Assembly: GCA_964035575.1 (NCBI GenBank)
Contig: OZ037843.1
Location: 62,001 to 126,000, forward strand
DNA: 64,000 nt
Direction of reading: 5' to 3'
Source of the DNA: Rhynchopus sp. YZ270_cl-10
Lineage: Eukaryota
The number at the start of each line of letters is the position of its first letter. Positions within the stretch are counted from its first letter, which is position 1. A program made the translations under genes and the position numbers. Shown piece by piece: positions 31,487 to 54,966 of the stretch. Below the pieces are notes generated by a model. The model was not told the DNA's origin. It did not search any database and saw only the letters and a list, made by a program, of their open reading frames with translations.

Positions 31487-32572
31487 TTAAAATCTATATT
31501 GGTCTTCACCCCTCTGAGTTTTCAACCTTCGGAGGCTTCTTGTAGTACTGAAATAGAACTCGAGAGAGAAGATATTCGCAAGATGCTTTGTGACCACACC
31601 CTGCCAGTAGCGAATCATTCCTTGGTCCCCACAATCCGTGGTGACGTTGTACTCAGCCTCACACAGGCACTTCCCGCCTGCATCACATTCACCATGACCG
31701 TGGCACGTCACGTCGTCGGTGCAATAAACATCACAATCATGACCGTAATAATGAGGCAGGCATTTTTGACAGTTTGTGTCCTCATCGAACCCTTGGTCAC
31801 AATCGCATCCAAGCTTGGCGTCATTGTATGACCCTCGCGCGTTGCACATGATGTCACTGCACGTAGTAGCAGGGTCGCAGTGAAATTCGCATGCAGGACC
31901 AACCCAGCCGTCGTTGCATTTGCATTTGGACACATCACCTTCGCATCTGCCGTTCCCGCTGCAGGTAAGCGAAGGACTGCAGGCGCAGGCTGCGCCTTTC
32001 CAATGTACCCAATCACCGTCGCAAGTGCACGCAGTCAAAGCTCCTGTCGCGTCGCATTTCCCTTGGCTGCATTGCGCATCGTCGCAAAACACTTCACAAT
32101 GCGGACCATACCAATCGTCATCACAGAGGCAGGGCAGGCCTAAGGTGTTGTGGTCGCAATACCCGTTGTTGCTGCAGAACGTACGGCACGTCTTGTCGCA
32201 GGAGTTGCCAATCCAGCCAGGGTTGCAGACACAGCTGAACGTGTCGTCGCAATGCTGGTTCTGTCCACAGTGTTGGTCTGTGTAGCATACACCTTGTGAG
32301 GCACACGGCGTTCCAGAGGTGCATGGGATGTTGCAGTATACCCCGGTCCAACCAGTGCTGCATGCGCAGGCGGATGTGAGTGGATCGCACGTCCCGTGGC
32401 CGTGGCATGTCTCTGAAGGGCTGCAGGCGCAGTCGTCTCCTGTCCAGTCGCCACGACACCGGCAAGAGTTGTCGTAACATAAGGACTTCGCCCCTGGGCA
32501 CTCAGCATCGGAAGTGCACCTCTGAGAACGAACTGCCCACAGCATCGCCAAACCCACAAAGGAGCGCAACAT
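31487..32572 (-). CDS. EGF-repeat protein, copy 2 (361 aa; lacks one 30-aa EGF unit)
   Basis: Near-identical to copy 1 with an in-frame 90-bp deletion. Confidence 0.88.
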   Translation of the reverse strand: MLRSFVGLAMLWAVRSQRCTSDAECPGAKSLCYDNSCRCRGDWTGDDCACSPSETCHGHGTCDPLTSACACSTGWTGVYCNIPCTSGTPCASQGVCYTDQHCGQNQHCDDTFSCVCNPGWIGNSCDKTCRTFCSNNGYCDHNTLGLPCLCDDDWYGPHCEVFCDDAQCSQGKCDATGALTACTCDGDWVHWKGAACACSPSLTCSGNGRCEGDVSKCKCNDGWVGPACEFHCDPATTCSDIMCNARGSYNDAKLGCDCDQGFDEDTNCQKCLPHYYGHDCDVYCTDDVTCHGHGECDAGGKCLCEAEYNVTTDCGDQGMIRYWQGVVTKHLANIFSLEFYFSTTRSLRRLKTQRGEDQYRF

Positions 32573-33164
32573 CGTTGTGCCGCTGTCCAAATGCGAGAAA
32601 AGGTGTTGAACCTGCGATGTGAAGGTGTGTGTGTGGTGGGTACTGAGGAAAACTCAAACGGCCATTTTAATACGCATATTTGTTCCGCACGCATAATACT
32701 GTGAAAACCAGTTGAACAATCCCAGCATGACAGAGCAGGAGGTCATTTGACCACTTTCCTGGATGCCAGGAAAGGGGAAGATGATTTTCGCGTCGAAGGC
32801 ATCCTCAAGGTGATCTCAAAAACAGTTGGGTAGGGGTGGCTTTTATTGTTTTCCATTTTAAAATGATTTTTCGTAGCAAAACCAAGCCATGCAATAGGCA
32901 GGGGAAGGGACCGAGGTCTCTTCGCGTGGGCCATTCAACAGGGGAAGTGTGGGTGGAAAAAGAGATAGGGCAAAACACCTCTGATTTGCAGCCAGTGAAG
33001 ATCCTGCTACCTAGAAAGGGGGGGGTTAGAACACCCGGGTTGTTGTTTTGCGGGGAAAACTGAACTAACATTTTGCAATAGTAGTTGGTGATAGCAGACA
33101 CCTCCGACTGACCCACGTACGATGCCAGCCATCCGGATGAACAGCATAAGAAGGAAGAACTATT

Positions 33165-33291
33165 CATAATTTTACGGTAATTATAACCCCATACTTACAC
33201 GCAGGTGGTTTATGTCACGAGCGGGTATTAACCCAAACGAGTGACATAAACCCACCTAAGTGCAATTAGGGGGGGATAATTACCAATTATG
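33165..33291 (+). other. Solo imperfect hairpin of the YR-associated hairpin family
   Basis: GGTAATTAT..CAC GC AGGTGG TTTATGTCAC GA ... GA GTGACATAAA C CCACCT AA GTG..ATAATTACC. Confidence 0.7.
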
Positions 33292-33979
33292 ACGAGTACA
33301 AAAAGTTACAGTATCTATAGAGTGGGGGTAGTAAATTGCAACCACACATCCTACTTTTCCCCACAAACAGTAAAACAATAAAAACAATAAAGACAAAAGG
33401 GAGAGGTTGTGATCCAACACCTCTACCGAAAAATTTAGGGGTTTTGGCATTTCGCCACGATTCTGGAAAAATCGATGGCGATAGCGAACGCCCTGAATGC
33501 AACATTATTTTTACTACGAGGGTAATAAAATGAAAGCAAAAAGGAAGGAATGTTTATAATGTGGCCCTAAGCCTCTCTGTGCTTAGTCTGATTAGATTAC
33601 TTTTTTCCTGTGCTTAGTCACCTTTGATCACATTCGTTATCGCAGTAGCAACAGCTGCGCGATAACGAAACAACAGACGTTGACAAATAAATGACCAACA
33701 AAATCCTACAGGACAGAAGGGAAGCACAATTTTGTTTTTGTTTTTTTTTTCATACTCCGAGTCCTTGCGCGCGGACAGATTTTTGTCAAATTTGAGAAGA
33801 TTAACTTGGGAAAAAGTATTCTTGTACTCTTTCTTGCTGATCGTTCTTTTACATTGCCTGCGTGCGTACAGATTTTTTGGAGGCTGAGAACCTGAACAAA
33901 GAAAAAGATGTTGTGCTTCCCAGGAATCCCTACACGGTGCGGTCTGTCGTGCTTGGAGTGTGTAAATAACGGACTTACC

Positions 33980-34110
33980 CCCTGAGTCCGACAGTCGGAC
34001 CCCCTGAGTCCGACAGACGGACTCAGGGGTCCGTCTGTCGGACTCTGGAGTCCGACAGACGGACTCTGGAGTCCGACTGTCGGACTCTGGGGTCCGACAG
34101 TCGGACCCAA
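33980..34110. repeat. Palindromic minisatellite GTCCGAC(A/T)G(T/A)CGGAC, left array
   Basis: Seen directly; matching array at 44897-45030. Confidence 0.9.
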
Positions 34111-34420
34111 AAAAAAAAAATTTTTTTTTTTTGGGCCGAAAAAAAAAATTTTTTTTTTCATAGTGTGAGAACGATCGTGACGGTTTTTTTCAAGATCTTG
34201 AACTTTTTTTCAAGATCTTGACATTTTTTTTTTTTATATCACATGTGAAAATGACTTTTTGCTGGGATCCTTCACAAACGGGGCGTGAAATAAAGTGAGC
34301 TTTTTTTCACGCTTGCTCTTAGTAATTTCGCTGGAGGCGTGAAAAAAAGTTTCACTGGCGTGAAAAAAAGTTTCACTGTTTTCTGTCAGTCACAAAACCA
34401 CACACTCCACCCTACAAATC

Positions 34421-35437
34421 ATGCCAAGGACCAAGAAGAAGGAGGCTATGGAGGATCTGTATGAGACCGAGCTTCTGGCAGGGTTGAAGTCAAGCACTGC
34501 ATACAAAACGGAGTGGAATAAGTTTTTACAACACAATAAAATCACGGGGCGGAAGCAGCCAAGAGAAGAACATGTGGTCTCTTACTTGACACACCTGCGC
34601 GAAGAACGCAGCTACAAAGCCAGCTCATTATGGTCGTGCTACTCTAAGCTCAACTTTATGTTCAAGACGGAGTTCGACTTTTCACTAAAGGAGTACCACC
34701 GCATCGGGCTGTTGCTGAAGACCTGGGGAAGTGACGAATCGACGAAGAAGAGCAAGACGTTTTCGAAGGGAGAAGTGGAGATGTTTCTCAAGATGAGCGA
34801 GTTGAGCGACTGCTACTGGTGTGTCCGCAAGGCTTACGTCGCGGTGTGTTTTCTGTCGGGAATGAGATGCACAGAAGCACTGATGCTTGAGATGACAAAT
34901 TATCAGGAATCACCAGTGGGATACCTCTTCACGTACCAGCACTGTGCTAAGGTGAAAAAGGCCGACATGGAGCGTGGGAGGTTTGTGGTACCAAGAGACA
35001 GCATCTACTTTTGTGTGGTGGAGGAGTACCTGAACCGGCGCTCACCAGTTTCACAGGAGGGTCGCTTCTTCATCACTGGAACTAAGACGACAGCTGACAG
35101 AACTACTACTGGGACCTTTCGTGTGCAACCTCTTGGCATCAACAAAATGTACGGCATACCTGCAGAAGTCGCGAGGGTGCTTGCGCTGGACGGTTCGTAC
35201 ACTGGGCACAGCTTCCGCAGGTCTTCTGCGACTCAAGCCGCTGAGGCAGGAGCATCTATTGTACAGATGCAACGCCACTATGGGTGGGTCAGTCAGGCAA
35301 TGCCACAAAGGTACACCGAAGTCACACAGGCCGGTCAAGTTGCGATGTCACAGCTGTTGACACAGAACAACAGTCCCCCAACTCAGACGCCACAAGAAGT
35401 CAAGATTAACATCAATGTGCAACAGAACAAACCATGA
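34421..35437 (+). CDS. Tyrosine recombinase, 338 aa, catalytic set intact
   Basis: SGMRCTE (R), AKVKK (K), GHSFRRS (HxxR), HYGW (H/W), RYTE (Y); N-terminal core-binding-like helices. Confidence 0.95.
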   Translation: MPRTKKKEAMEDLYETELLAGLKSSTAYKTEWNKFLQHNKITGRKQPREEHVVSYLTHLREERSYKASSLWSCYSKLNFMFKTEFDFSLKEYHRIGLLLKTWGSDESTKKSKTFSKGEVEMFLKMSELSDCYWCVRKAYVAVCFLSGMRCTEALMLEMTNYQESPVGYLFTYQHCAKVKKADMERGRFVVPRDSIYFCVVEEYLNRRSPVSQEGRFFITGTKTTADRTTTGTFRVQPLGINKMYGIPAEVARVLALDGSYTGHSFRRSSATQAAEAGASIVQMQRHYGWVSQAMPQRYTEVTQAGQVAMSQLLTQNNSPPTQTPQEVKININVQQNKP

Positions 35438-35730
35438 TCATGAGTGCAAAAAAAAAAAACCCCCCTTCTGTGATGCTCTATACACCTGCCCCCCCCCCTA
35501 CAGGCGAGATGAGTGGTGACATCTTGTAATTAGTACCAGTCATAGGAGGCATATATCAAAAAAAGTAACCCCTTCCCTGCTTTTGATTGATGTTCACATG
35601 TTCCCCTACTCTCATTCACACTCTCACTTACAGGTACCCACATTTTGTTCATAAAATCACTCTATTTTACGTCTCGTTTGTGAAGGATCCCAGCAAAAAT
35701 ATCATTTTCACTTGTAAAACAAAACTACGT

Positions 35731-35884
35731 ATTAGTTTGAAATAAAGTGCGTTTTTTCACTTCCACGTATTTTGTCTCACTCGTGCTCTATTATTGCCCT
35801 CGCCTGCGGCTCGGGCAATAAACTCTCACTCGTGAGCCAAAATTACGTGGGCGTGAAAAAAAGTGCACTTTATTTCACGCTAAT
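35731..35884 (-). other. ~150-nt imperfect terminal hairpin with strand-specific G.A mismatches and GCA triloop
   Basis: Minus strand reads ...TTTCAC GC CCACGTA..CTCAC GA GTG AGAGT TTATTGCCC GA GCC GCA GGC GA GGGCAATAA TAGAG CAC GA GTGAG..TACGTGG AA GTGAAA... Confidence 0.85.
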
Positions 35885-37099
35885 AATTAGTTATTTTTTC
35901 ACGATCGTTTTTTTTTTTCACGATCGTTTTTTTTTTTTCCCCTAGTAGTACAAGGGGCATGGGCGTGAAATGGGTGGCAAGGGAGAGTTTCTGGGTTCTA
36001 CTTGGACTTTTTTGACCGACTCTTTTCCTTGAAACGATTTTGTGGCGAATCTTTCAAATAAAGCAAAAATCGAGAACATTCTCACACCAGAATCCCCCCC
36101 AACGGATGTCGCCAGCGAGGCACTAAAACCAGAAAACCGTTTTTACCCATAGCAAGTGCCACTATAGTGGCGCACGAATGCCACACGTTGGTAGGGGTAA
36201 TGGGGTTCTACTCATTTTCGTAAAGACATTTTTTTTCTGTGTGACAAGAATAAGGCAAGAATCGACAACTTTCGTGAAAATGTCATATCGTTGGATGCTG
36301 GAGGGAGGTGGGTCAACCCTAGGAAAACGACTTTTTTTGGCGCTCACCCCCAAAATCACCCCCTGCCTCGTGACTTCGCCCTGCAAACAGAATTCTACTC
36401 AAAATCGTAAAATAAATTATATTTCGTAAGAATTGATGTCGATCTTTTAGATAAAGCCAAAATCGAGCAGTTTTGATGATTAGGTTAGTGCAGCCGTAAC
36501 AAGGAGAACACAGGGTAAAATCCCTTGGTTTTCCCTTGCTGTACTGTATGTGTTAAAAAGTGTGTATTGGTGTACGGGAGAGATGCGCGTTTAAAGTTGC
36601 AACATTTTTAGGCTGATTGACGTGGGCCTGGCATGCCCCATTTTTCACTTTTTACCACCGATTTAATTCGATCACCATCGAACACTGGGAAAATTTCTTG
36701 GTCAGTTTGGGGTATAACACGTGTATGACCTAATTTTAGGTGGTCAGAAGTGGAGTCTGACCCCCGTGCCCACATCATTTTTGAGCATGTTTTTTGGTTT
36801 TCCTCAGCACAACGTAGGAGAAGGCGAACTGTTTACAAGGAGGGACAGGGTCGAGCGTGAGTGGGTCACTGCAGTGGCTCACGATACACTGAACGGGTTT
36901 GCGGCTGGGAGGGAAACGTTTCCACTGTTACAGGCAAGTCACAAGGGGGTGGTGACTTGTGTGGGAGAAATGGGTACGGACAAGGCTGTATGCGTTTAGT
37001 CCCAAGAGCCTTCACTGATGTCAGAGTCGTGATGCTCAGCATCATCATCAACCTTGGGGTCCTCAGCTGTCGCGTCGCAGTCAATATAGCTCCCGCACG

Positions 37100-37340
37100 C
37101 TCCTTCTCCTCCTGCACCAGCTTCTCCTCATCCCACCAACCATTCTCTTGTGGCGGCTTGCTCTCGCGCAAACTGCGTGCTACGACCACAAGCTTGTGCA
37201 GCTTTGGTGCAACTAGCCAGTTGCGCCTCTTCTCGCTCATCCACCCATCGTACTGAAGATGCGCTCAGCATGTTGAGGCACAAATGGAACTCAGGGGAAG
37301 AGCTGTGGACAGAGAGGCCAGGGTTTGGGGTGCTGTGTGA
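37100..37340 (-). pseudogene. Frameshifted hAT transposase C-terminal dimerization-domain remnant
   Basis: Across frames: LASLSTALPLSS / AERIFSTMG / MSEKRRNWLVAPKLHKLVVVARSLR, matching the hAT ERxFS...RRNRL...L signature. Confidence 0.7.
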
Positions 37341-38746
37341 GCTACAAACGCTCCCCTTCACTCCTTAGATCAAACATTACCCGTTGTCTTGCAAGAACTT
37401 GCCCAATTCTGCAAATTGACCCCACCACTGCACGGGCGGCTTCCAAAAATGCAAATAAGGACCCTTTTCCACAACCTTCCTTCACAGAAGGGTCAATTTT
37501 ACAAACCCGGATTTTGAGGAAAATTTTAGCCGAAAATGGGCCCACGTATAAGTGACCGGGCTCATATTTCCCAAAATTTAAGTGGTCAAAAAATCCAATT
37601 TTCGAGATTGACCCCACCACTGCACGGGCGAATCCCAAATGTAAATAAAGACGTTTTTGGCCCAAAATAAATCTGCCAAAATTGTGTCCCGGATTGGATT
37701 TTGGACTCCGGACCCCATATTTAGAAATAGCCCTGTGTTCTAAACAATGAGCATCACAGCGGTTGACCCTGGTATTTTTGGTTTTTTTTGAAAATCTCAG
37801 CTCAAAAAATACCAAAAAAAAAAAAAAAAATACAGGCGTATCATCCTTGCGTGACCCCCCCAAATTCTAAAATCTGTGGACAGCGTGCTCTGACATAGGT
37901 TGTACTCATTAAAAAACCGGTAAAAATACAAGTAATGTGTGATGGTCAAAAGTGCAAAATTCCTTCGCCAATGCATTATTTGAGCATTTGTTATACCTGG
38001 AGAATATGGTCAGATCACTCTTCAGACCACCAGCCAACGAAATATACCGTAATTGTACAGAGGTTGGACAGTACAAAAGTTGGGGCTTTTGGCCAACTTG
38101 GCCTGGTGTTGAACCGCATCCCCCGCCACAATGGGCATAAATGTCCTCTTGGTCCGTAAAGGGTTAAAAAGAGTGTCTCACGATACACATACAACCACTC
38201 GCGATTGGATAGATATTATAACAAAGGGAATTCAGAACAAAACAACACCCTGCCCACACACTAAATTGCCATGCTTCAAGAGCATGCCTGCCGGGCCAAA
38301 AATTACTGTGGCAAAAAGGCAACAAGACCACCCACAAAGAGTGTGAATTGTATTGGATGGACAGGGGTTTGCACAGTGATGATGTTACTACGACTAGGTT
38401 TTTGGCGATATTACATGTGCATGTTACATGCCATGCCGTGACGTGCTGCTTCATGGTATACGCATGTCATAGAATGTCGCGATTTTTTACGATTCGTATT
38501 TCGGGTTTTGCGAATTTTGTTCCAGAAAAGTACACCCCAAAAATGGCAAAAAAGGTGACATTTTACGTCAAAACACCGCTAAAAGTTACTCTCGGCCGAT
38601 TTCAGGGGGGTTGTGGGCACCTGTGGGGGCTCCCTCCCTGGTGTGGGCCAGCGATCAACGACATAATATGGGAAAAAAAAAACGATCGTTTTTTTTTTCC
38701 TTCACGATCGTGAAGAAAAAGGTGCTTTTTTTTCACGATCGTGAAG

Positions 38747-40405
38747 AAATAACTAATTATTAGCGTGAAATAAAGTGCACTTTTTTTCACGCCCACGTAA
38801 TTTTGGCTCACGAGTGAGAGTTTATTGCCCGAGCCGCAGGCGAGGGCAATAATAGAGCACGAGTGAGACAAAATACGTGGAAGTGAAAAAACGCACTTTA
38901 TTTCAAACTAATACGTAGTTTTGTTTTACAAGTGAAAATGATATTTTTGCTGGGATCCTTCACAAACGAGACGTAAAATAGAGTGATTTTATGAACAAAA
39001 TGTGGGTACCTGTAAGTGAGAGTGTGAATGAGAGTAGGGGAACATGTGAACATCAATCAAAAGCAGGGAAGGGGTTACTTTTTTTGATATATGCCTCCTA
39101 TGACTGGTACTAATTACAAGATGTCACCACTCATCTCGCCTGTAGGGGGGGGGCAGGTGTATAGAGCATCACAGAAGGGGGGTTTTTTTTTTTGCACTCA
39201 TGATCATGGTTTGTTCTGTTGCACATTGATGTTAATCTTGACTTCTTGTGGCGTCTGAGTTGGGGGACTGTTGTTCTGTGTCAACAGCTGTGACATCGCA
39301 ACTTGACCGGCCTGTGTGACTTCGGTGTACCTTTGTGGCATTGCCTGACTGACCCACCCATAGTGGCGTTGCATCTGTACAATAGATGCTCCTGCCTCAG
39401 CGGCTTGAGTCGCAGAAGACCTGCGGAAGCTGTGCCCAGTGTACGAACCGTCCAGCGCAAGCACCCTCGCGACTTCTGCAGGTATGCCGTACATTTTGTT
39501 GATGCCAAGAGGTTGCACACGAAAGGTCCCAGTAGTAGTTCTGTCAGCTGTCGTCTTAGTTCCAGTGATGAAGAAGCGACCCTCCTGTGAAACTGGTGAG
39601 CGCCGGTTCAGGTACTCCTCCACCACACAAAAGTAGATGCTGTCTCTTGGTACCACAAACCTCCCACGCTCCATGTCGGCCTTTTTCACCTTAGCACAGT
39701 GCTGGTACGTGAAGAGGTATCCCACTGGTGATTCCTGATAATTTGTCATCTCAAGCATCAGTGCTTCTGTGCATCTCATTCCCGACAGAAAACACACCGC
39801 GACGTAAGCCTTGCGGACACACCAGTAGCAGTCGCTCAACTCGCTCATCTTGAGAAACATCTCCACTTCTCCCTTCGAAAACGTCTTGCTCTTCTTCGTC
39901 GATTCGTCACTTCCCCAGGTCTTCAGCAACAGCCCGATGCGGTGGTACTCCTTTAGTGAAAAGTCGAACTCCGTCTTGAACATAAAGTTGAGCTTAGAGT
40001 AGCACGACCATAATGAGCTGGCTTTGTAGCTGCGTTCTTCGCGCAGGTGTGTCAAGTAAGAGACCACATGTTCTTCTCTTGGCTGCTTCCGCCCCGTGAT
40101 TTTATTGTGTTGTAAAAACTTATTCCACTCCGTTTTGTATGCAGTGCTTGACTTCAACCCTGCCAGAAGCTCGGTCTCATACAGATCCTCCATAGCCTCC
40201 TTCTTCTTGGTCCTTGGCATGATTTGTAGGGTGGAGTGTGTGGTTTTGTGACTGACAGAAAACAGTGAAACTTTTTTTCACGCCAGTGAAACTTTTTTTC
40301 ACGCCTCCAGCGAAATTACTAAGAGCAAGCGTGAAAAAAAGCTCACTTTATTTCACGCCCCGTTTGTGAAGGATCCCAGCAAAAAGTCATTTTCACATGT
40401 GATAT
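38747..40405 (-). mobile_element. 1.66-kb tyrosine-recombinase element, copy R (inverted)
   Basis: Reverse complement of copy L apart from homopolymer length; hairpin at 38759-38912. Confidence 0.88.
39204..40220 (-). CDS. Tyrosine recombinase, 338 aa, identical to 34421-35437
   Basis: Identical translation in the ORF track. Confidence 0.95.
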   Translation of the reverse strand: MPRTKKKEAMEDLYETELLAGLKSSTAYKTEWNKFLQHNKITGRKQPREEHVVSYLTHLREERSYKASSLWSCYSKLNFMFKTEFDFSLKEYHRIGLLLKTWGSDESTKKSKTFSKGEVEMFLKMSELSDCYWCVRKAYVAVCFLSGMRCTEALMLEMTNYQESPVGYLFTYQHCAKVKKADMERGRFVVPRDSIYFCVVEEYLNRRSPVSQEGRFFITGTKTTADRTTTGTFRVQPLGINKMYGIPAEVARVLALDGSYTGHSFRRSSATQAAEAGASIVQMQRHYGWVSQAMPQRYTEVTQAGQVAMSQLLTQNNSPPTQTPQEVKININVQQNKP

Positions 40406-40890
40406 AAAAAAAAAAAAAAAAACGATCGTTTTTTTTTTCTTCACGATCGTGAAAAAAAAAAAAAAAAAAAAAGACCGATCACTTTTTCCCAGATTCGTAA
40501 AAAAAAAAAAAAAAAAAAAACGATCGTTTTCACCCTATGTTTTTTGGCCAAAAAAATTTTTTTGGCCGAAAATCGCCTTGTATAGCCACTACAGTACACA
40601 TGGTTTTACCAAAATAGCCGTATTTTGGCTGAAAATTTGACTTGAAAATTTTTTTCATTGTTTGGTCAATCTGAGGTTTTCTTTGAATTTTTTGGGCCAT
40701 TTTATGACCTACTACACCCAATTTTTGGGGGATTTTTTTTTTCTTGGTCAAAAAATAGCGCTTGTTGCCTACTACTGGGTATAGGCTTGTTCAGAGGTGT
40801 GTATTTGGTGTACCCAGACATGGTCAAAACACATGAATTTTGCGTTTTTTTGCATTTTTAGGTTCTCGACCAACCAGGGGGCGACCAATT

Positions 40891-41009
40891 TGGGTACTGG
40901 GTACTGGGTACTGGGTACTGGGTACTGGGTACTGGGTACTGGGTACTGGGTACTGGGTACTGGGTACTGGGTACTGGGTACTGGGTACTGGGTACTGGGT
41001 ACTGGGTAC
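40891..41009 (+). repeat. (TGGGTAC)17 heptamer microsatellite
   Basis: Seen directly. Confidence 0.97.
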
Positions 41010-41418
41010 CAAGAGAAGGCAGCTTGACAGCAGCGAAGGCGGAGGCTACGGGGAAGACAAGGTATGTAAATGTTTAACTTTCAGTTACTTGTGTAGATGC
41101 AAACAACACACCCAGTGGTTTGCAGCATTTTATTTTCTTGTGTGCTTTCTCTTCTTTGAATCGAAAGTATGTGAACCTTATTACATCATGATACAATGCA
41201 ACGAGGCCGAAACAGCCTCACTAAGGCCTCTGAAAATAAATGTTCAGACTTGGCACTTACTTATGTTTAGGTGCGCCTCAACCACACGCTTGAATATATT
41301 TAATTTGCCACACCTCAGATAGATTTTCCAGATATGCCTATGTTCAGGTGTTCCAGGCCTCGTCACAAATAGACAAAAAAACAAAAGCCAAAACAACAGA
41401 GAGAGAGCCAACAATTTT

Positions 41419-41720
41419 TTATCTCACTTGTGTAATAATGTTTAGCCGCGTTTTCGAAATTCCTTCCTGGAGATTACACAAAATACAGTAGACATTATCT
41501 CCGCACACAAAGAACAAAACAAAACCCATGCCGAGAGTAGGCGCAAAAGCAATATGGAGGAGATCTGCGCATGCAACCAAAAGGGTTGCAGTCATAGGAC
41601 TTCGAGGAACTGTTCACCATACCCAACCTTGACGCCCCGTACTAGGTGGTCATACATCATTTGTCAAATATACTGTAGGAATTTCGAAAACGCAGCACAA
41701 CATTATTGCCCGTGAGATAA
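41419..41720 (+). mobile_element. IR-bounded cassette A with a probable degenerate YR 5' fragment
   Basis: ~45-bp IR TTATCTCAC..AATAATGTT..GCGTTTTCGAAATTCCT (41419-64 / 41677-720). ATG at 41528 gives MPRVGAKA then frameshifted MEEI, weakly like YR MPRTKKKEAMEDL. Confidence 0.55.
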
Positions 41721-42535
41721 TAACTATTTATTCGAGTGAAATAAGAACTATTTTATTTCACGCGCCACTAAAAAGGTGCCCGAGTGCGTTATTTCCCGAG
41801 CGAAGCGAGGGGAATAAGAGTGAGAGTCACGAGGGTGCCTTTTTAGTGGCAAGTGCAAGAAAATGTTCTTATTTCACTCAATATGTAATTTTATTCCACA
41901 AGTGAAAAACGTATTTATAGGTGTAAACAGTGGAACGTTGAGCCCACGCTCCACCCCTCACACCACCACACTTCAAATTACAGATTATTTATTGCCTCTT
42001 ACACACATGCCTAAACCCACGCGCAAGTTTGCGGAGATGGAGGATGCATATGACAACTTGTTCGACGACATGAACAGTGGTGTGCAGTACAGGAAAACAT
42101 GGGACGATTTCCTCCGTTTCAACAGACTTTCAGGAGCGAACGAGCCCAGGGAAGAACACGTCGTGTCCTTCAGATCACTCCGTGATCTTTTATTTCACTC
42201 CCCCACCCAATCCTTCACGATTTGCGTGAAATAAAACGTGAAATAAAACGAATCTTATTTCACTCACTTTTTCACCTGTTTACGTTTTTCACGCGTGGTA
42301 TAAAATTACGTATCGAAAACTAAAGTGAACATTATTTAACTGATGGGTGATTCACAAACTGGAATACGTGATACCCACTCGCTATCGCTCGTGACATCAC
42401 TTTTATGATTACACTCACTTCACTCATGAAATCAAAATGCTGAACTCCACTCGCTTCGTGAAGTTGAGCCCCAGTTTGAGTCACCCACCACCTCGTGAAA
42501 TAATGTTCACTTTATTTCATGAGATAATAATTATC
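41719..42535 (+). mobile_element. Internally deleted YR-element relative: hairpin A - IR - YR fragment - IR - hairpin B
   Basis: Hairpin 41734-41879; 33-bp IR 41881-41913 / 42281-42313; branched hairpin ~42311-42525; end ATAACTATTTATT resembles ATAACTAATTATT of the full element. Confidence 0.8.
42007..42171 (+). pseudogene. Truncated YR N-terminus (diverged paralog)
   Basis: MPKPTRKFAEMEDAYDNLFDDMNSGVQYRKTWDDFLRFNRLSGANEPREEHVVSF aligns with YR MPRTKKKEAMEDLYE...AYKTEWNKFLQHNKITGRKQPREEHVVSY. Confidence 0.85.
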
Positions 42536-42547
42536 TAACTCAGTGAA

Positions 42548-43404
42548 ATAAAACTCGTGTAATTTTGCAGATTATATGCCCTTTGTGTCACTCAATTGTA
42601 ACCGAGAATGTAAGGCAGTGAGTATTTGATCTGCCCTTTATGTCGCGAAATACTATGTTTGGTGTTTTGACGTCTTCCAAGCAGATGGATATTCCCTCAC
42701 TTGCACGCAATCTACCGAGGAACCGACTGCCTTTCTCAAAAGCCAGTACATGTCGGGGTGTCGAGGTCCGTGTCAATACAAAGCGGACCAAGTCGCTCGA
42801 GGTTTGAAAACCGCAAGAACTCGTCCCATTTCTTCTTGTACACCTCCTTGCTTCTCATACCCGCTGAGACTTGGTATCCGTAAGTGTCATACATCCTGTC
42901 CTTCTTCGTTTTGGCAGTGTTTGAGGGGAGTGATGAAAAAGTTCTTTTTTTTACTGAGTGATTTTTTTAACCAAAAGAAAACCGACGCAGGAGCTTTTCT
43001 GGAACTGTTTTATTCTCCCCACCCCAACAACATCACATTTCAGAAAAACATTGTTTTTTCGTTTTTGTTCACTTTCTTTTCTTCTCCCTCACACCTGTTT
43101 GCTGTGAATTAAATTTTTTCGTTTCGGCCTGGTCGCAAACGCGAGTTTTCCTGGAAGCGCAGGAAAAATGACTGGGGAGTGTTGGTGGCTCCGTGACGCC
43201 ACAGAGCCGGCACACTCGTTGAGTGCCTCACAAAACCTCAAATTTATTCCGCTTTGATTTCATTTATTGTCTTCACGCTTTATCGTTGTTGTTGGGTTGG
43301 GAAATAATATTTCATTCTCCCATACATTCTCGGTTACAATTGAGTGACAAAGGGCACATTATCACCCACCTTTGTGGGAATTCACAAAATTACACGAGTT
43401 TTAT
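42548..43404 (-). mobile_element. IR-bounded cassette C containing a YR 5' fragment on the minus strand
   Basis: Perfect 20-bp IR ATAAAACTCGTGTAATTTTG (42548-67) / CAAAATTACACGAGTTTTAT (43385-404). Confidence 0.65.
42800..42917 (-). pseudogene. Another truncated YR N-terminus (not in the ORF track)
   Basis: Minus strand translates AKTKKDRMYDTYGYQVSAGMRSKEVYKKKWDEFLRF, aligning with RTKKKEAMEDLYETELLAGLKSSTAYKTEWNKFLQH. Confidence 0.75.
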
Positions 43405-44896
43405 CCCCTTTTTTTACCACATTAACCTCACCTTTCCCGATAACTGCGTTTCTACACCATACATTTCATTCATTAATCACACTCCACATTTACACTCATC
43501 ACAGGATCGTGAAATCTGAACTGCATCTGCGATTGTGATGAGAAGCCTCGCCGCGTCTCCGACATTCAGCAACTCAAAATCCAAAGAGTATCACCCGCAT
43601 CAATCCATTCTGAGTTTGCGGACTAAGATCTGGGGTGGAAGGGGGATGGGTACACTTTGTCAGTCACTGCTATTGCCATTTAACCCAGGGAGCATAGCTA
43701 GTGCAAGAAATTCGACTTTGGAAACCTTCCGGAAAGTCTGTCCTCTGCTTGCGGAGGACGAGGCACAAGAAAATATTGCGTTCCCCCAGAAAACCAGTGC
43801 ACATTTCACACTCCTTGTGGGTGGTCTTGTTGCCTTTTTGTCACAGTAATTTTGGCCCAGGCATGCTCTTGAAGCATGACAATTTAGTGTGTATGGGGCA
43901 GGGTGTTGTTTTGTTCTGAATTCTCTTTGTTATAACATCTGGTTTGTGTAGCGTGAGGCACTCTTTTTAACAAACTTCCTGCGGCTGCTAAAGCGTTATT
44001 TCTTCGGATTTAACAACGTACAGCGTAACATAGTGGATTCGCCTGGTCGACACAACCTTTGATAGATATGGGATAACCAACCCCCTTCGACCCCTCGTGG
44101 GTTCACTAAACAAGCCCTCGTGGTAGTTAAACGCGATTGACATTTACATTCCTAGAGATGAAAGAACAAGACAACACTTCTGTACCCGCGCATCAAAATT
44201 GTGGAAAACTTTGCACCCCAAACACCCTCAACAACGCCCGCCAAAAGGCGCCCCTTGTTGCTGGGAGTTGGTTCTCATGTTTGATACCTGCACAGCGGGC
44301 ATTCCTCTGAGTCCAACGCATGTTTGGCCTGTCTGCGGCGTTGTACTTCAGGTGCACGAAGACAGGGTCTGGTGGTAAATTTTGCGTAGTGTCGCATTCC
44401 CTCATGTGTGGGTCACTCACACTTGGCGGTCATGTGCCACTGCGTGGGTCTGGGAATTTGGGTACCTGGGTACAGGAAATTTGTTGTGGAAGACATCAAC
44501 CACCATGCATTGAGGAGGGTAAGACAGTGTTCGCAGTTTCTACCTGATAGCATTACAACATTTAACTTCTCCACGGGGGTCTTGGGCCGTTCACTCGGTT
44601 CTACCTTGACTACCGGAAGATATTCTTGAGGCCTTTCTGGTCTCTAGAATATCCGGTCTTCCCGAACGGAGGCACACTTTGTGTGTTACTACGACCTGGC
44701 AATTTCCAGCAGTAGGTTAAGTAATCTTTCTTGTAAATTGTTGGATCATTATCTCCTCAGTGCATGAATGCCCCACGTGACTGGACACTTTTGTGTTTGT
44801 CATGTGGAGCTGTGGTTGCTCTTTCACGACTTTTTTCCTGTTCCTGGGTACCTGTTCCTGGACCTGGACCTGGGTACCTGGGCACCTGGGTGTGCC

Positions 44897-45030
44897 TGTC
44901 GGACCCCAGGGTCCGGCAGTCGGACTCAGGGGTCCGACTGTGAGTCCGACAGTCGGACCCCTGAGTCCGACTGTCGGACTCAGGGGGTCCGACTGTCGGA
45001 CCCCCTCGGACTCCGACAAAAGGGTCCGAC
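44897..45030. repeat. Palindromic minisatellite GTCCGAC(A/T)GTCGGAC, right array
   Basis: Seen directly. Confidence 0.9.
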
Positions 45031-45687: not shown

Positions 45688-46863
45688 TTAAAATCTATCT
45701 TGGTCTTCACCCCTCTGAGTTTTCAACCTTCGGAGGCTTCTTGTAGTACTGAAATAGAACTCGAGAGAGAAGATATTCGCAAGATGCTTTGTGACCACAC
45801 CCTGCCAGTAGCGAATCATTCCTTGGTCCCCACAATCCGTGGTGACGTTGTACTCAGCCTCACACAGGCACTTCCCGCCTGCATCACATTCACCATGACC
45901 GTGGCACGTCACGTCGTCGGTGCAATAAACATCACAATCATGACCGTAATAATGAGGCAGGCATTTTTGACAGTTTGTGTCCTCATCGAACCCTTGGTCA
46001 CAATCGCATCCAAGCTTGGCGTCATTGTATGACCCTCGCGCGTTGCACATGATGTCACTGCACGTAGTAGCAGGGTCGCAGTGAAATTCGCATGCAGGAC
46101 CAACCCAGCCGTCGTTGCATTTGCATTTGGACACATCACCTTCGCATCTGCCGTTCCCGCTGCAGGTAAGCGAAGGACTGCAGGCGCAGGCTGCGCCTTT
46201 CCAATGTACCCAATCACCGTCGCAAGTGCACGCAGTCAAAGCTCCTGTCGCGTCGCATTTCCCTTGGCTGCATTGCGCATCGTCGCAAAACACTTCACAA
46301 TGCGGACCATACCAATCGTCATCACAGAGGCAGGGCAGGCCTAAGGTGTTGTGGTCGCAATACCCGTTGTTGCTGCAGAACGTACGGCACGTCTTGTCGC
46401 AGGAGTTGCCAATCCAGCCAGGGTTGCAGACACAGCTGAACGTGTCGTCGCAATGCTGGTTCTGTCCACAGTGTTGGTCTGTGTAGCATACACCTTGTGA
46501 GGCACACGGCGTTCCAGGGGTGCATGGGATGTTGCAGTATACCCCGGTCCAACCAGTGCTGCATGCGCAGGCGGATGTGAGTGGATCGCACGTCCCGTGG
46601 CCGTGGCATGTCTCTGAAGGGCTGCAGGCGCAGCTCAGACCAACCCAACCTGGGGTACAGATGCAGTCGGAATTCTCACATTGTCCGTTCCCGTTGCATG
46701 TCTCTGAAGGGCTGCAGGCGCAGTCGTCTCCTGTCCAGTCGCCACGACACCGGCAAGAGTTGTCGTAACATAAGGACTTCGCCCCTGGGCACTCAGCATC
46801 GGAAGTGCACCTCTGAGAACGAACTGCCCACAGCATCGCCAAACCCACAAAGGAGCGCAACAT
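45688..46863 (-). CDS. EGF-repeat protein, copy 3 (391 aa)
   Basis: Near-identical to copy 1. Confidence 0.88.
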   Translation of the reverse strand: MLRSFVGLAMLWAVRSQRCTSDAECPGAKSLCYDNSCRCRGDWTGDDCACSPSETCNGNGQCENSDCICTPGWVGLSCACSPSETCHGHGTCDPLTSACACSTGWTGVYCNIPCTPGTPCASQGVCYTDQHCGQNQHCDDTFSCVCNPGWIGNSCDKTCRTFCSNNGYCDHNTLGLPCLCDDDWYGPHCEVFCDDAQCSQGKCDATGALTACTCDGDWVHWKGAACACSPSLTCSGNGRCEGDVSKCKCNDGWVGPACEFHCDPATTCSDIMCNARGSYNDAKLGCDCDQGFDEDTNCQKCLPHYYGHDCDVYCTDDVTCHGHGECDAGGKCLCEAEYNVTTDCGDQGMIRYWQGVVTKHLANIFSLEFYFSTTRSLRRLKTQRGEDQDRF

Positions 46864-47818
46864 CGTTGTGCCGCTGTCCAAATGCGAGAAAAGGTGTTGA
46901 ACCTGCGATGTGAAGGTGTGTGTGTGGTGGGTACTGAGCAAAAACTCAAACGGCTATTTTAATACGCATATTTGTTCCGCACGCATAATACTGTGAAAAC
47001 CAGTTGAACAATCCCAGCATGACAGAGCAGGAGGTCATCATTTGACCACTTTCCTGGATGCCACCAACGTGAACCACAGCACCAGGTGCGCGTCTATCCT
47101 TACCCAGTCGCAGAGGCAGTTCGTGAAACCCCAAATCCCGGCGGAAACCAGACGATCCACGGAGACTGCAAGGTATGGCGATGTGTGAATTGTGGAAATG
47201 GGGAGGGGGAGGACAGATTCTTATTGTCCCTCAAAATCTCTTTGTTGTCTCTTTAGTCTATTTTTCTTGCATTTCTTTTCTTCTTGTGCTTTCTTCGTTT
47301 TGGTTGTCAAGAAACGCTCAATCGCCTATCGAGTTCTGTGAATAGCACGGAACTGCGTTTCCTGTGTATCCGTGGAAAGACAGTATCATATGTGATACCG
47401 GAATATTTTTTTTTGAAAAAAGGGGTCGAGAAAAACAAACAACGAACGCGCTGTGTGGAAAAAAAAACGAGTGTTTCTCTGAGCGTGATATTTTGTGGGT
47501 GGAAGATAAAACACTATTAGATTCATATACTTTCAGTTCACAGAATTGAAAACATTTTGAGAGGGTCAACACATATCAAAAACACTATGAAAAAAGAAAA
47601 GCACGTTGTACTACCATTCCCCTCACATACGTTCCTCCACTCCATTTAGTTTTCTCTCTCACTTTAAAAAAGTTTTTAACTGTTTACCGCTTTTGTTTTC
47701 ACCCCCGCCCAGTAGCACTGGTTTCGTTGGGCACTTAGCACAAAGCCTGCTAATCACGACACTGTCCAACTAAAGAAATTGCCACCTTATTCGACAAACC
47801 CGCAAAACCTGAGGCTGG

Positions 47819-49985: not shown

Positions 49986-52601
49986 TCAGTGCATTACCAC
50001 AACGAACGGTGCATAAGCCTTCTGCCGCACATAGCTAGTAAGCTCTTCGTAAGGTGTGCGTTGGTCCTGAGCGACGCTGTCCAGCAGAGAAGACGCCTTC
50101 TCAAAGTCCTGTTTGATGATGTGCTCGAAGACCTCGTTCCACAGTGCGTGCGGGTTGTTTGAGGCAGACTCCAGCTGGTACATCCACTCCTCGTTTTCGC
50201 TGCTGCACAGACCCTTCACAGCAAACACAGTCTGCACCTTGTCACTCAACTTCTCGTACAGCACAGCACCTACACACTGGAGCACTACCTGTCCCTCAGC
50301 CTCACGTGATACGGTACGGTCAATGACACCAGGAAAGTTGCACTTCTTGTTCCAACGCTCAAGCACAACCACCCACGACATGGACCGCGAAAGAATCGAC
50401 ACCTTCTTCATCCCGTTGCAACCCATGTTCCCGACACGTGCCTCGCCTGTCGTGCACCCATACGAGATCTTGTGCACATCACCAAGTGCTGTTGCAACTT
50501 CGTGTGCAGCATGCACACAGGCAACCCCGTGCGACGGCTTCGGAACAAAGGCGTTGAAGGTGGCAAGCATCTTGTCGCCAGCAAACGTGTCGCACACCCC
50601 CTTGTTGCGCTGCACTGCTGTCAGGATCGTCTCAATCACACCTGCGTGTGCGGAGAGCACCTCTGCGTCCTTGTGATTCTTGCAGAAGGCGTGCCACAAC
50701 ACGACGTTCATGTGTGCCAGCGACACCTTCTTCTTCTTCATCCCTTCCACACGCAGCAGTGCCTTCTGGTGCTGTATCTCAACAACTGAACTCTGTGTCG
50801 TAGGTGAATGACCGGACATGCCTGACTGCGACCTCGTCTCCCGTGAGGACTTCGTTACGGACACTTCCTCATTCTCGGTGTCGTTGACAAGCACACTCTG
50901 TGGCATGTAGTTCCGGTACTCCACCAGGTTCCCCACCATGGTAACAAAGCTGCGCTGCATCATCCCCACTTCACTCAGCTGCGACACTGCACGGCCCGTG
51001 TCCACAGCCTCCAGGTCCATCACAGCCACACTTGCCATCTCACTCCCAAGCTTCAGCAGAGGTGACGTGATGTAACGTGTGAACACAACAGCAATGGCAA
51101 GAAGTCCGATCACCGCAACAGCCGTCACAATCACCATCACAGTCACCGCATCCTCCTTCTGTGCGTCTGCAGAGGACAGATCTGATGCCACCTTCGCACG
51201 GATTGCACTCGTCGACGCATCAATCGTATCCATCACAGACGCCCGAGGCACAAGAAGGGTTGAATACCAGAAGATAGTGCTGTGTTCAATTTTCGACGCG
51301 ATTGTCCAGAACTCCGTGCCGTTCGAGTCAGACCACTTCAGGAAGGAGTCCTCTGTCATCTCCACAAAGTCTTCGTAGTTCTGCGGGTGTGTGAACACAA
51401 ACCGCCCGTGCTCTGCAATCACTGAGGGGATGTGCGACGTCGCGTCTTCCATCGAGTGGTTCGTGATGTTCATGCTCGACACAACGGATATAATCTTGCC
51501 CCGCCAGTTAGTTATATTATACATCACCACCTGCCGTCCGCTGTTGTACGCGACAAGTGTCCCCACTGCACCAGACGCACGGTCGTCCTCCACCAGGTAC
51601 AGCGACGTGCCGGTCGGGAGCAGCTGTGCACGCAGCACGTCGGTTACTCCGTCTGCAGTCAAGGTTGCACTGACGGAACCCACACGCTTGCCCTGCTTGG
51701 GGAACATCGTGTACATATCTGGGTGGGTGTAGGTGTAGCTGAGACCCCAGTACACGGTGTCCCAGGCGACCTGCATGCGTGTGTAGACAAGCGTCTTTGC
51801 AGGGTTCAGGGGTGGCTCGTCGGCACTCACGTAGTGCATCTGTTTCCCACGCTGGTCGTGAACCGGGCTGTCAGGGGGTTCGGCGCCAGAGACGGGAAAT
51901 ATGCACAATCCACGCAGCAAATCTTTGTTGTAGTCAGGATCGTAGTTGCACGGCAGTGCGGGGTCTCTGATGTCACCCAGTTCGTTGATTTCTGTGTAGA
52001 TAGCATAGTCGGAAAGTCCCTCTGCCAGCGTCAGGTGGTCACGTGACTCATACAGCATAAGAATCTTCGTGCCGTTCGTAGGTAGCACACCACTCGCAGC
52101 AGTCGCTACCCTGTGTTGGAACCGCGAGCCCCACCCTGCAAACCCGTCACCCCTCTTCCACGGAACAGGATGTGCCGCACACCACGCGTAAGTTTCGTGA
52201 TGGAGCTCGGTTACCCCAGCCGTCATCCCAGCCTTAAAAGCAGACAAGACTGCAGGACGCATTATTGTGCGAGAAAAGGCGGGGTTCGTGGTGACGTTTG
52301 GGTGGTGCACTTGTGCCAGGTTGGCGAGCGAGATCACCAACTGCTCAGGCACCTTCAGGTACTCCTTCACTGCCGTGTCCACGTTGCCAAGAACAGAGCG
52401 CAGGTAGCGTGCCGAGACCGTTTCGATGTCCGCCGTACCACTGTCGAGACACATCCCGAAGCCCTCGTCACCTGTGTCACGTGCCTTCTCCAGAAGGTCG
52501 TCCCATGTTGACAGAGTGAAGCCACCGATGATCGCACCTGTCGACAGAATCAGCACCACACACAGCAGTATTGTCAGCGACTGGATCCCGCATGACACCA
52601 T
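49986..52601 (-). CDS. Receptor-type class III cyclase-like protein (TM-sensor-TM-HAMP-cyclase homology), copy 1
   Basis: Two hydrophobic segments; HAMP-like ITSPLLKL...MDLE...SEV; cyclase-like GVCDTFAGDKMLATFN and GEARVGNMG. Confidence 0.88.
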   Translation of the reverse strand: MVSCGIQSLTILLCVVLILSTGAIIGGFTLSTWDDLLEKARDTGDEGFGMCLDSGTADIETVSARYLRSVLGNVDTAVKEYLKVPEQLVISLANLAQVHHPNVTTNPAFSRTIMRPAVLSAFKAGMTAGVTELHHETYAWCAAHPVPWKRGDGFAGWGSRFQHRVATAASGVLPTNGTKILMLYESRDHLTLAEGLSDYAIYTEINELGDIRDPALPCNYDPDYNKDLLRGLCIFPVSGAEPPDSPVHDQRGKQMHYVSADEPPLNPAKTLVYTRMQVAWDTVYWGLSYTYTHPDMYTMFPKQGKRVGSVSATLTADGVTDVLRAQLLPTGTSLYLVEDDRASGAVGTLVAYNSGRQVVMYNITNWRGKIISVVSSMNITNHSMEDATSHIPSVIAEHGRFVFTHPQNYEDFVEMTEDSFLKWSDSNGTEFWTIASKIEHSTIFWYSTLLVPRASVMDTIDASTSAIRAKVASDLSSADAQKEDAVTVMVIVTAVAVIGLLAIAVVFTRYITSPLLKLGSEMASVAVMDLEAVDTGRAVSQLSEVGMMQRSFVTMVGNLVEYRNYMPQSVLVNDTENEEVSVTKSSRETRSQSGMSGHSPTTQSSVVEIQHQKALLRVEGMKKKKVSLAHMNVVLWHAFCKNHKDAEVLSAHAGVIETILTAVQRNKGVCDTFAGDKMLATFNAFVPKPSHGVACVHAAHEVATALGDVHKISYGCTTGEARVGNMGCNGMKKVSILSRSMSWVVVLERWNKKCNFPGVIDRTVSREAEGQVVLQCVGAVLYEKLSDKVQTVFAVKGLCSSENEEWMYQLESASNNPHALWNEVFEHIIKQDFEKASSLLDSVAQDQRTPYEELTSYVRQKAYAPFVVVMH

Positions 52602-53046
52602 TGTTCTGAGGTGTACAGAAAGGGAAGAAAGTGCATGGAATGTCTGGGGCTGTGTGGTGGTGTGTGGATGCCTTGTGAGGGTAACTCTTGCGAAGTCTCG
52701 TCGAAGCTATTTCCCTGTTGATAACGGTAAATATGCGGATTTCCGGTATGAATGTGTTCGCCTGAAGTGCAGAAAGGCTGTCATGGAACACAGGGGAGAT
52801 AAGAGAGGGGAAACAAGCGGGGAGTTTGAATGGGGTTTTATTGAAGTTTTTTATATGTTTGCTTTGTGTTATTGTTTTGTTTTGCTTTTTGAAAACTTGG
52901 TTGTATTAGCCACCCTAGAGTGTGCTCCACTATTAGTTTTTTTTTTTTTGTTTTGTTTTGTTTTGTAGTATGGGTGTTCTGGGAACGAGGTAATTCATGT
53001 GTAATGGGGCGGGATGGGGTGGAACGGGGGGAATTTAAAGTTTTTT

Positions 53047-54966
53047 GGGAGATAGTCAGACTTACCCTACCCTATTTTGAAAAAGTTCAGACTTGCCCTA
53101 TGAAAAAGTTCAGACTTGCCCGAAAATAAGTTCAGACTTGCCCTAAAAGTGTTTTTAGGGCAAGTCTGAACTTATTTTTAGGGCAAACACTTTTTTTAGG
53201 GCAAGTCTGAACTTTTTTAGGGCAAGTCTGAACTTTTTTAGGGCAAGTCTGAACTTATTTTTAGGGTAAGTCTGAACTTATTTTAGGGCAACAAGTCAGG
53301 CCACTTTGGCTGGGGCACTCTTGGGGCCCCATGTGGTATGACTTGTTTTATTGCCCTAAAATGCCTAACCGAGCCGGAGCCCAAAAATTGATGCCAGAAA
53401 CCACCAGCCACCCGGAAAGGGTGAACAGGCAGTCCACGTTGGGCCAGAACCGGTTACAAAGGAAGCCGTGTTCTGGGGCAACGTGGGGCGCAAAGTTTTA
53501 CAATTTTCATGCACGGGTGCTCCACAAATTACCAAGTATTCCTTCTTTGTTGAATTGAGAGAGAGTCAGTGTTTAGCTACCACGCGGGTTTGCTTAGAAT
53601 CCTTCGAGGCCGGCACAATTTTATTTATGTGGTCGGTTAAGACATGCCTATTGAAGAACAACGAGATCATCGTTGAAAGGAGCGAACTCCCCTTCCCACA
53701 ACATCTCTCACATTTCAACTCAGAATTCATACTTGGTTGTTTGCTTTGTCCATACGCAATCAAATTGTCATGCTTTCAAGAGCATGCCTGGCCAAAATGC
53801 AACAACGTGGAAAAATTGTTGTTGTTCCAAAAGGCAACAAGACCACCCACAAGGGGTTGAATTGTGCACTGTCCGGGGGAGCGCAAAGTTTTTTCCCTGT
53901 ACACAGTGGACACATCTTTATCACTTTGTTCCCACGGGGACACATTTGGATACTGCACGCATGCAGAAGTGCCAAACATGTCCGCACGTGGAGTGGAGTG
54001 TCCATCATGTTTTCCTGGTTTCCAAAAAGCAGTTTTCTTGCACTTACTATTTGCCCCGGTGTCTGGCAATAGAAGTGGCTAACATTGTAATGAGTAGCAT
54101 ATACATACCGTTGATCCAAATGAGTAAGGCGACCAACAAGTCCTCTGGACTTTTTTGTTGTGACGACAATCGCGGAGTAATCCCGGAGAATTACATCCTC
54201 GTATAAAAAGTTAAAGGTAGAGGTGGGGAAACTGTAGCTATAGAAATAGTTGTTGCAGTAGTGCAGACACCCGAGGGTGCACCACTATGCTTTTCTTTGG
54301 TTGTATCGACAATTTTACGTACATGATGTAGGACCTGTACAATGTCGCCCAAAGGCTTTGTACTTACTGCAGTAATCGGTATTTTTTTTTTGTTACTACT
54401 ACGTCGTGTTCTATGAGGAGTCGCGTTTGGGTGCGGAAGTCTTTTTTCTGGTCTCTGTTCTGTACGGGTCTCGGATCGTGGTGCGGTACTGCGGTGCGGT
54501 ACCTGAGAGTTTTTTAGAGTGATGATAAAGGTCAGAGGGTTTTCCCCTCCCATTTGTGTCATTATTTAATTTTGCTCGGAAAGTGGGGTGTCCTGGACAC
54601 GAGGAAATTCAGTTGCATGGAAAAAAAGCTCCATACCATAGGTTGCTCATTTCACTACCAGGACTCGTCGCGAATAGCCCATACGTGCCCTAAACAGAAA
54701 CGCAAAAACGACGACCGCCGGGCTCTGTAACCCAAGAGCCCCCAGCTTGCCCAATAAATAAGTGCAGGGTTGCCCTAAAAAAGTTCAGACTTGCCCTAAA
54801 AAAGTTCAGACTTGCCTTAAAAAAAGTGTTTGCCCTAAAAATAAGTTCAGACTTGCCCGAAATAAGTTCAGACTTGCCCTAAAAACACTTTTAGGGCAAG
54901 TCTGAACTTATTTCGGGCAAGTCTGAACTTTTTCAAAATAGGGTAGGGTAAATCTGACTATTTCCC
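53047..54966. mobile_element. Non-autonomous Mutator/MULE-like element
   Basis: Long TIR GGGA(G/A)ATAGTCAGA(C/T)TTACCCTACCCTATTTTGAAAAAGTTCAGACTTGCCC; 9-bp TSD AAGTTTTTT; subterminal AAGTTCAGACTTGCCCTAAAA arrays. Confidence 0.88.

Follow-up and report, generated by a model that had tools for sequence, protein, structure and literature searches.

The locus at 41419-43404 lies within a window of 64,000 nucleotides, which is the whole stretch of DNA analyzed, and contains three units bounded by inverted repeats (A, B and C) together with two large hairpins. The inverted arms of A (41413-41464 and 41677-41728) are 52 nt long and 75% identical, and those of B (41878-41913 and 42281-42316) are 36 nt long, compared with the 33 nt reported by the first-pass annotation, and 86% identical. 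C has two nested pairs, an outer one of 20 nt (42548-42567 and 43385-43404, 100% identity) and an inner one of 33 nt (42586-42618 and 43317-43349, 94% identity). Hairpins A and B fold with z-scores of -7.0 and -5.0, respectively, and none of 200 shuffles was equally stable in either case. A 10-6-10 palindrome with two mismatches or fewer occurs seven times in the 64 kb, four times in two intact elements (E1 and E2, see below) and three times in the locus; at five mismatches there are five in the locus, against a shuffled mean of 0.025. One contig of public run X1 spans 41100-43513 and covers the whole locus, and overlapping contigs of run X2 tile it, which rules out an assembly artefact. The inverted repeats and both hairpins, already described in the first-pass annotation, are genuine and far beyond chance.

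Intact elements and their recombinase

Two nearly identical elements encoding a tyrosine recombinase (YR) lie near the locus:

34231..35893, plus strand: E1, intact autonomous-type element of 1.66 kb, encodes the YR
34232-34298, plus strand: first arm of E1
34421-35437, plus strand: YR ORF of E1
35657-35724, plus strand: second arm of E1
35716-35899, plus strand: terminal hairpin of E1
38750..40410, minus strand: E2, second copy, 99.8% identical to E1, with its YR ORF at 39204-40220

The order in E1 is arm, internal site, YR gene, inverted arm and a terminal hairpin of 185 nt (z -9.7). E1 and E2 each carry one intact YR of 338 aa as their sole ORF, and their layout defines the true unit as arm, body, inverted arm and one terminal hairpin. 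The protein matches the Pfam family Phage_integrase, and residues R149, H263, R266, W289 and Y298 are near-invariant among 60 aligned proteins. Its predicted structure (pLDDT 90.5) is Cre-like, with a TM score of about 0.7, and IntI4 ranks below Cre in the structural comparison. The exact protein of the window is present on 37 contigs of the public collection, and 1770 homologues were found at E ≤ 0.001. A word-based search with the single YR sequence returned only itself, and two scans of viral contigs gave no YR relatives.

Contigs of four public runs place the ends of E1 at 34224-34231 and 35899. In these runs the E1 family has at least six other flanks at the arm end, every one joining in a T-run, and one other flank at the hairpin end. 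An empty E1 site is found in runs X2 and X4, with no target duplication. E1 is thus insertion-polymorphic with clean empty sites, and these may be either ancestral or the product of excision. No circle joint of the E family was found in the contigs of the four runs. E1 and E2 are inverted with their hairpins face to face, 2.85 kb apart (34231-40410), which may reflect a local hop and could provide a substrate for inversion. Both are flanked by runs of short palindromes with half-site-like arms around GATC (34160-34242, 35894-35940, 38673-38749 and 40413-40490). These runs have high depth in X4, and may be either a repeat family targeted by E elements or footprints.

Probable nested organization of the locus

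When the unit defined by E1 and E2 is applied to the locus and its surroundings, the features are as follows:

41415..41464, plus strand: distal arm of A, starting in a T-run with a half-site
41677..41721, plus strand: hairpin-side arm of A; its end half-site (41712-41721) is the target used by B
41720..42303, minus strand: B, non-autonomous, inserted at the arm/hairpin junction of A
41720..41883, minus strand: hairpin A, which terminates B; its outer foot has the spacer at 41722-41727, and a 10-6-10 site lies at 41736
41878..41913, minus strand: hairpin-side arm of B
42238..42263, no strand: 10-6-10 palindromic site just inside the distal arm of B, as in E1
42281..42303, minus strand: distal arm of B
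42304..42533, plus strand: hairpin B, the terminal hairpin of A displaced by B, with a 10-6-10 site at 42495 and outer foot to 42533
42534..43408, minus strand: probable extent of C, composite and hairpin-less, its left end overlapping the outer foot of A tail-to-tail
42927..43307, minus strand: leader region of C, with many diverged copies in public runs
33164..33292, minus strand: isolated hairpin that shares its outer foot and strand bias with the hairpins of the locus

Hairpin A aligns to the E1 end on the minus strand at 70% identity, and its site matches the internal site of B at 86%, so B is a minus-strand element running from 42303 to 41720. Multi-copy pieces of hairpin A begin at 41719/41720 in runs X2, X4 and X8. 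A contig of X8 joins 41720 to 42319 through 16 letters near-identical to those of the window, which is an uninterrupted A-type junction, and another contig leaves the B arm at 42306 for a different flank. Excision of B in silico restores an arm/foot junction like that of E1. Taken together, the X8 joint, the boundary at 41719/41720 and the restored junction assign hairpin B to A and place the insertion of B at the arm half-site of A, the direct evidence for nesting being one joint in one run (X8) from a diverged relative. The arm of A shares 18 of 24 nt with the foot of hairpin B. Of 25 joints, 373 loose ends and 1634 pieces, the contig-junction evidence covers 15, 24 and 31, respectively.

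The start of C coincides with the end of the outer foot of A, and the two feet overlap tail-to-tail. Neither a simple cassette nor ownership of hairpin B agrees with the polarity and junction data for C, and a candidate hairpin inside its leader was rejected (z -1.3). Among the 15 of 25 joints listed, empty sites were found for neither A nor C, and no distal arm for the hairpin at 33164-33292 was found within 32-36 kb. Three decayed copies of the C arm are spaced at 55-60 nt (42574-42711). C is followed by a multi-copy repeat (43409-43700); another copy in X1 and X2 is preceded by a different sequence resembling a hairpin end (loose end 43421), which suggests a recurrent target.

This organization changes the first-pass annotation in several respects. 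The hairpins had been regarded as spacers between cassettes, and each is instead the terminus of one element; the cassette boundaries were out of register with the unit defined by E1 and E2; and the head-to-tail array becomes a nest, with B inside A and C tail-to-tail with A. The central idea, that several subfamilies of one type of YR element accumulated at each other's end sites, is retained. A true integron-like cassette array, with a hairpin site for each cassette at a dedicated locus, is very improbable: the three units do adjoin at site-like junctions, and one metagenome relative (L049) may be a head-to-tail dimer, but hairpins A and B point in opposite directions, B splits A, cargo genes are absent and the kin are dispersed. 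The integron-like character that had been proposed thus survives in the flavor of the site and fails for the platform, since cargo, attI or promoter and a dedicated array are absent and kin also occur at unrelated sites.

YR fragments

Remnants of the YR gene within the units are:

41528..41650, plus strand: in A, a non-significant candidate for a decayed YR 5' remnant
42007..42234, plus strand: YR 5' fragment of B, an ORF of 75 aa with homology to YR residues 1-55
42799..42906, minus strand: YR 5' fragment of C, ATG start codon lost

A profile of the YR N-terminus, built without the protein of the window, gave 28.7 bits (E 1e-7) for the fragment in B and 17.7 bits (E 3e-4) for that in C, compared with 3.9 bits for the best unrelated match. 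There was no match in A (-0.4 bits, against 1.7 for the best of 60 shuffles). At the DNA level the similarities B-E1, B-C and C-E1 were each reached by none of 300 shuffles, and that of A is marginal (reached by 3/300 against B, 9/300 against E1 and 71/300 against C). The remnant in A, significant neither by profile score nor by shuffles, was dropped, so that the YR N-terminus reported earlier in all three units, weakly in A, holds for B and C. The fragments would be the remains of internal deletions, and B may encode a 75-aa peptide. A contig of B type in X8 joins 41918 to 42237 and apparently has no YR fragment (the short side of the joint is 30 nt), which argues against the proposed requirement for the YR N-terminus in cis, as do the non-significant remnant in A and the lost ATG in C. 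The YR homology of B ends beside a half-site (42187-42198), which hints at a deletion made by the recombinase.

Relatives in metagenomes

A metagenome scan matched 187 stretches, of which 111 were confirmed and 80 loci (23-42% identity) kept, in 60 clusters; the clusters are kin, and cluster counts are not independent. Hairpins of 80 nt or more are found near the YR gene in 24/60 clusters (shuffles 1/160), and a hairpin whose adjacent arm is mirrored beyond the gene is present in 11/60 (shuffles 0/160). Of the 22 clusters that have flanks of 400 nt on either side, 13 have a hairpin, eight of them with the arm pair, and nine have none. The hairpin is upstream of the gene in 17 clusters and downstream in eight. 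Loci L030 and L033, the latter with its hairpin far from the gene, may be false positives and were kept in all hairpin counts except the test of the foot motif. In that test, which left out L033 and L037 and used a motif taken from the copies of the window, the motif was present at the outer foot of 10/22 hairpins and the inner foot of 2/22, compared with 10.8% of random windows. On visual inspection, most families show imperfect pairing of the two feet across the spacer. The 10-6-10 site in its exact window form had two matches in the 80 loci and was rejected as a family marker.

Loci with a hairpin occur on both sides of a tree built by quick search only, in which the status of 10 of the 80 loci came from short pieces and one locus of less than 150 aa was dropped. 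One clade of 25 loci is mostly without hairpin; outside it, a hand count gave a hairpin in 12 of 15 full-flank clusters. The YR genes of this clade (L021, L025, L026, L032, L047, L053, L063, L072 and kin) are split or interrupted. At L061:3190-4590 a full YR element is without hairpin, its two arms each abutting flanking sequence; together with the hairpin-less C, it indicates that arm-only units exist.

Strand bias and junctions

When each hairpin is oriented solely by whether it lies upstream or downstream of the gene, the strand read inward from the outer end has more CGAG than CTCG in 19/24 clusters, and the reverse is never found. The loops of two by two nucleotides in the family hairpins are GA/GA in 32 of 53 cases. 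The hairpin of E1, hairpins A and B and the hairpin at 33164 share this G·A strand bias. The CGAG bias is present in 14/17 clusters with the hairpin upstream of the gene and in 5/7 with it downstream; being the same on either side, it tracks the end of the element and not the mRNA. The G·A strand is predicted to be the more stable one in 24/28 cases, some by small margins. G·A blocks also stabilize RNA, a point against a reading in terms of single-stranded DNA. In DNA hairpins, CGAG blocks form sheared G·A pairs (PMC10085684). Other palindromes or MITE-like repeats in the window (33977-34109, 44885-45018, 25737-25812 and 56156-56242) are without the CGAG strand bias and were excluded from the hairpin analysis.

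These data bear on the possibility that the hairpin works as RNA, in regulation or silencing, or that the small elements are of the Helitron2/Helentron type, moved by an HUH enzyme and carrying captured pieces of the YR. Asymmetric inverted repeats, hairpins and insertion at T fit Helitron2 (PMC8969392), but the intact copies encode a YR alone, the layout tracks the YR relatives across the tree, the strand bias is independent of gene direction, and 33000-44500 has no Rfam match. Either version is hardly credible.

The junctions point to the same strand. Insertions are found at A/T runs, often beside a half-site and without target duplication, and the target and element share just one to four A/T letters, a number that is not constant; an insertion site in X2 has no good half-site. 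Six loci (L049, L051, L059, L061, L064 and L067) form a family, named after L049, with 99% identity and differing flanks. Its distinct flanks and the empty E1 site agree with the earlier expectation of junctions without ordinary target-site duplications. In the L049 family the element's own spacer is at the hairpin end in 5/5 copies and at the arm end in 0/6; with E1, E2, the X2 site and B added, it is at the hairpin end in 9/9. L049 itself holds a joint of arm end and hairpin end that mirrors the internal arm/foot joint and may be a circle or a tandem (head-to-tail dimer). YRs cleave each strand at the 5' border of the spacer, and the position of the junction therefore names the exchanged strand. 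Junction position and strand bias are two separate signs, and they point to the G·A strand as the one exchanged.

The same nest could have been formed through excision of a double-stranded circle followed by two strand exchanges, as in a classical Crypton or a Tn916-like element with mismatched spacers, the hairpin being an accessory signal for protein binding or replication. This is the proposed model for Cryptons (PMC3212892; PMC13565253). It suits the Cre-like fold of the YR, the hairpin-less L061 and the hairpin-poor clade, and the occurrence of hairpins upstream in 17 and downstream in eight clusters suggests inversion between the arms, which would be a reaction of double strands. It is nevertheless rather unlikely: target and element spacers differ, a constant direct repeat of 4-6 bp is absent, the strand-specific G·A blocks are left unexplained, and the spacer is predicted at either end, whereas it was at the hairpin end in 9/9 (about 0.002 if random).

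Another alternative, modelled on bacterial SE elements, is a copy-out that starts from double-stranded ends and favors one strand, the hairpin serving later in second-strand priming or protection rather than as the site of recombination. It would account for the one-sided junctions and the strand bias, since SEs encode YRs, circularize one strand and have T-rich targets (PMC9345347). SEs are described there as without folded sites, and their 6 bp move to the opposite end on integration, whereas the arms and feet found here are positioned so that folding recreates a full site; such a copy-out is accordingly considered improbable.

Proposed mechanism

The locus is probably a nest of three non-autonomous Crypton-like transposons, kin of E1 and E2, that are predicted to move as a folded single strand with a preference for the ends of kin. 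At both ends of the element the YR would cleave the G·A strand at the 5' border of the spacer; joining of the cut ends would release a one-strand circle, and the other strand could retain the donor copy. Within this circle, pairing among arms and hairpin feet, two of each, would create a duplex site whose spacer is imperfect. A single strand exchange with a chromosomal half-site, followed by replication or repair, would integrate the element, in the manner of attC and CTXφ attP(+). Resident arm/foot junctions would be good half-sites, and would have received B at the junction of A and C at its outer foot, crippling A.

Nested insertions comprise B, C and perhaps L049; the hairpin at 33164, the X2 site and most copies of the L049 family are in unrelated DNA, and E1 and E2 are seated in short palindromic repeats carrying half-sites. 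The ends of kin thus appear to be favored, and not required, as targets. A one-strand mechanism would permit clean empty sites and copy gain together, as for CryptonF. Points that weigh against it are the failure to find a circle joint in the contigs of four runs, the copies and the clade without hairpins, the rarity of the exact 10-6-10 site in relatives, the X2 site without a good half-site and the kinship among the clusters counted. Whether the model can be extended to a widespread eukaryotic YR lineage, which folds one G·A-marked strand into a site and exchanges that strand alone, whose members parasitize each other's end sites, and which would explain the copy gain of Cryptons, is in our judgment evenly balanced.

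Comparison with known systems

E1-type elements resemble Cryptons in having a YR with R-H-R-Y as their sole enzyme, without a C-terminal domain, in the absence of target-site duplications and in their non-autonomous derivatives. E1 (1.66 kb) is in the size range of autonomous CryptonI (1.53-1.98 kb, PMC3212892), the named YR homologues are from beetles, and arthropods make up most of the top Atlas cluster. By these indirect signs, and as set beside its description, CryptonI is the likeliest lineage, although the host of E1 and E2 is apparently a protist. The CryptonA domain DUF3504 was found in one of 60 homologues (E 0.007) and not in the YR of the window, and the CryptonF domain GCR1_C in none of 60 proteins. 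In the relevant sections of PMC3212892, PMC8969392 and PMC13465315, Cryptons are described as without inverted repeats and with direct repeats of 4-6 bp, and the section on CryptonI and CryptonA in Kojima and Jurka (2011, PMC3212892) gives terminal repeats as not found. E1-type elements differ in having inverted arms of 36-68 nt and a terminal hairpin of 100-200 nt, and in the absence of a constant terminal direct repeat of 4-6 bp shared with the target. CryptonF-1_cRei of Chlamydomonas shows clean empty sites and copy gain, termed a complex mode of transposition (PMC9977147); unlike the elements described here, it inserts at a motif that matches its own terminus exactly, and the part of that paper devoted to it does not mention a hairpin.

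In attP(+) of CTXφ, an IMEX, one strand is folded into a target by means of two inverted sites, and a non-matching overlap blocks the second exchange (PMC3442271). A block of the second exchange by spacer mismatch is likewise probable for E1-type elements, which differ from CTXφ in using their own YR and loose targets in place of host XerCD and a fixed dif. Integron attC sites share the strand-selective imperfect hairpin (here predicted from sequence signs), replicative resolution (here presumed) and pile-up at like sites (PMC4792948), whereas attI, a promoter platform and cargo ORFs are absent here, the units nest and do not queue, and the YR of E1 and E2 is closer to Cre than to IntI. By analogy, the locus may work like an integron or CTXφ site borne by a Crypton-like element. 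Helitron2/Helentron elements also have asymmetric inverted repeats, a hairpin, insertion at T and no target-site duplication, but are described with an HUH Rep-helicase, which E1 and E2 lack, and short hairpins (PMC8969392). The SE elements of Vibrio share the YR-driven circularization of one strand and a T-rich crossover; according to the sections describing them, they are bacterial, carry four genes and have no folded site (PMC9345347).

An end structure of the E1 type was not found for Cryptons in the open-access literature text, a search separate from Repbase and Dfam entries. Long palindromes are present in Eulor5/6 and in the non-autonomous Cryptons of salmonids, and repeat libraries may therefore already contain the layout without its having been noted. 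The two groups of repeats have been linked (PMC5753468).

Significance and surroundings of the locus

Experimental demonstration of Crypton transposition is lacking (PMC13565253), and active Cryptons excise cleanly and yet gain copies, which the circle model leaves unexplained (PMC9977147). The window provides exact ends, an empty site, the strand that was probably exchanged and a compact element of 1.66 kb that moved recently, which together make Crypton transposition directly testable; to these it adds nesting at defined ends as well as the agreement of junction and strand. For annotators, the layout offers a structural signature of a group for which the ends are given as undetermined. If the one-strand model is true, single-strand YR recombination extends from bacteria to eukaryotes, and a small YR integrating without matching spacers could interest genome engineers.

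Elsewhere in the window, 1-20728 holds a 10-kb tandem duplication (97.9%) of a gene for a 2,670-aa DUF3638/DUF3645 protein, and three near-identical EGF-repeat genes lie at 28609-32590 and 45688-46941. Two genes resembling receptor-type cyclases (49986-52601 and 58408-61311) are 93% identical, and their Atlas neighbors are mostly Heterolobosea, a possible hint at the host lineage. The large tandem genes, the EGF repeats and these cyclase-like genes mark the DNA as eukaryotic and probably from a protist. Tandem arrays of 7 bp and 56 bp units are found at 40890-41010 and 63124-63577, respectively. Two palindromic arrays of short units (53045-53291 and 54746-54968) are inverted and 1.5 kb apart, resembling the ends of a foldback element.
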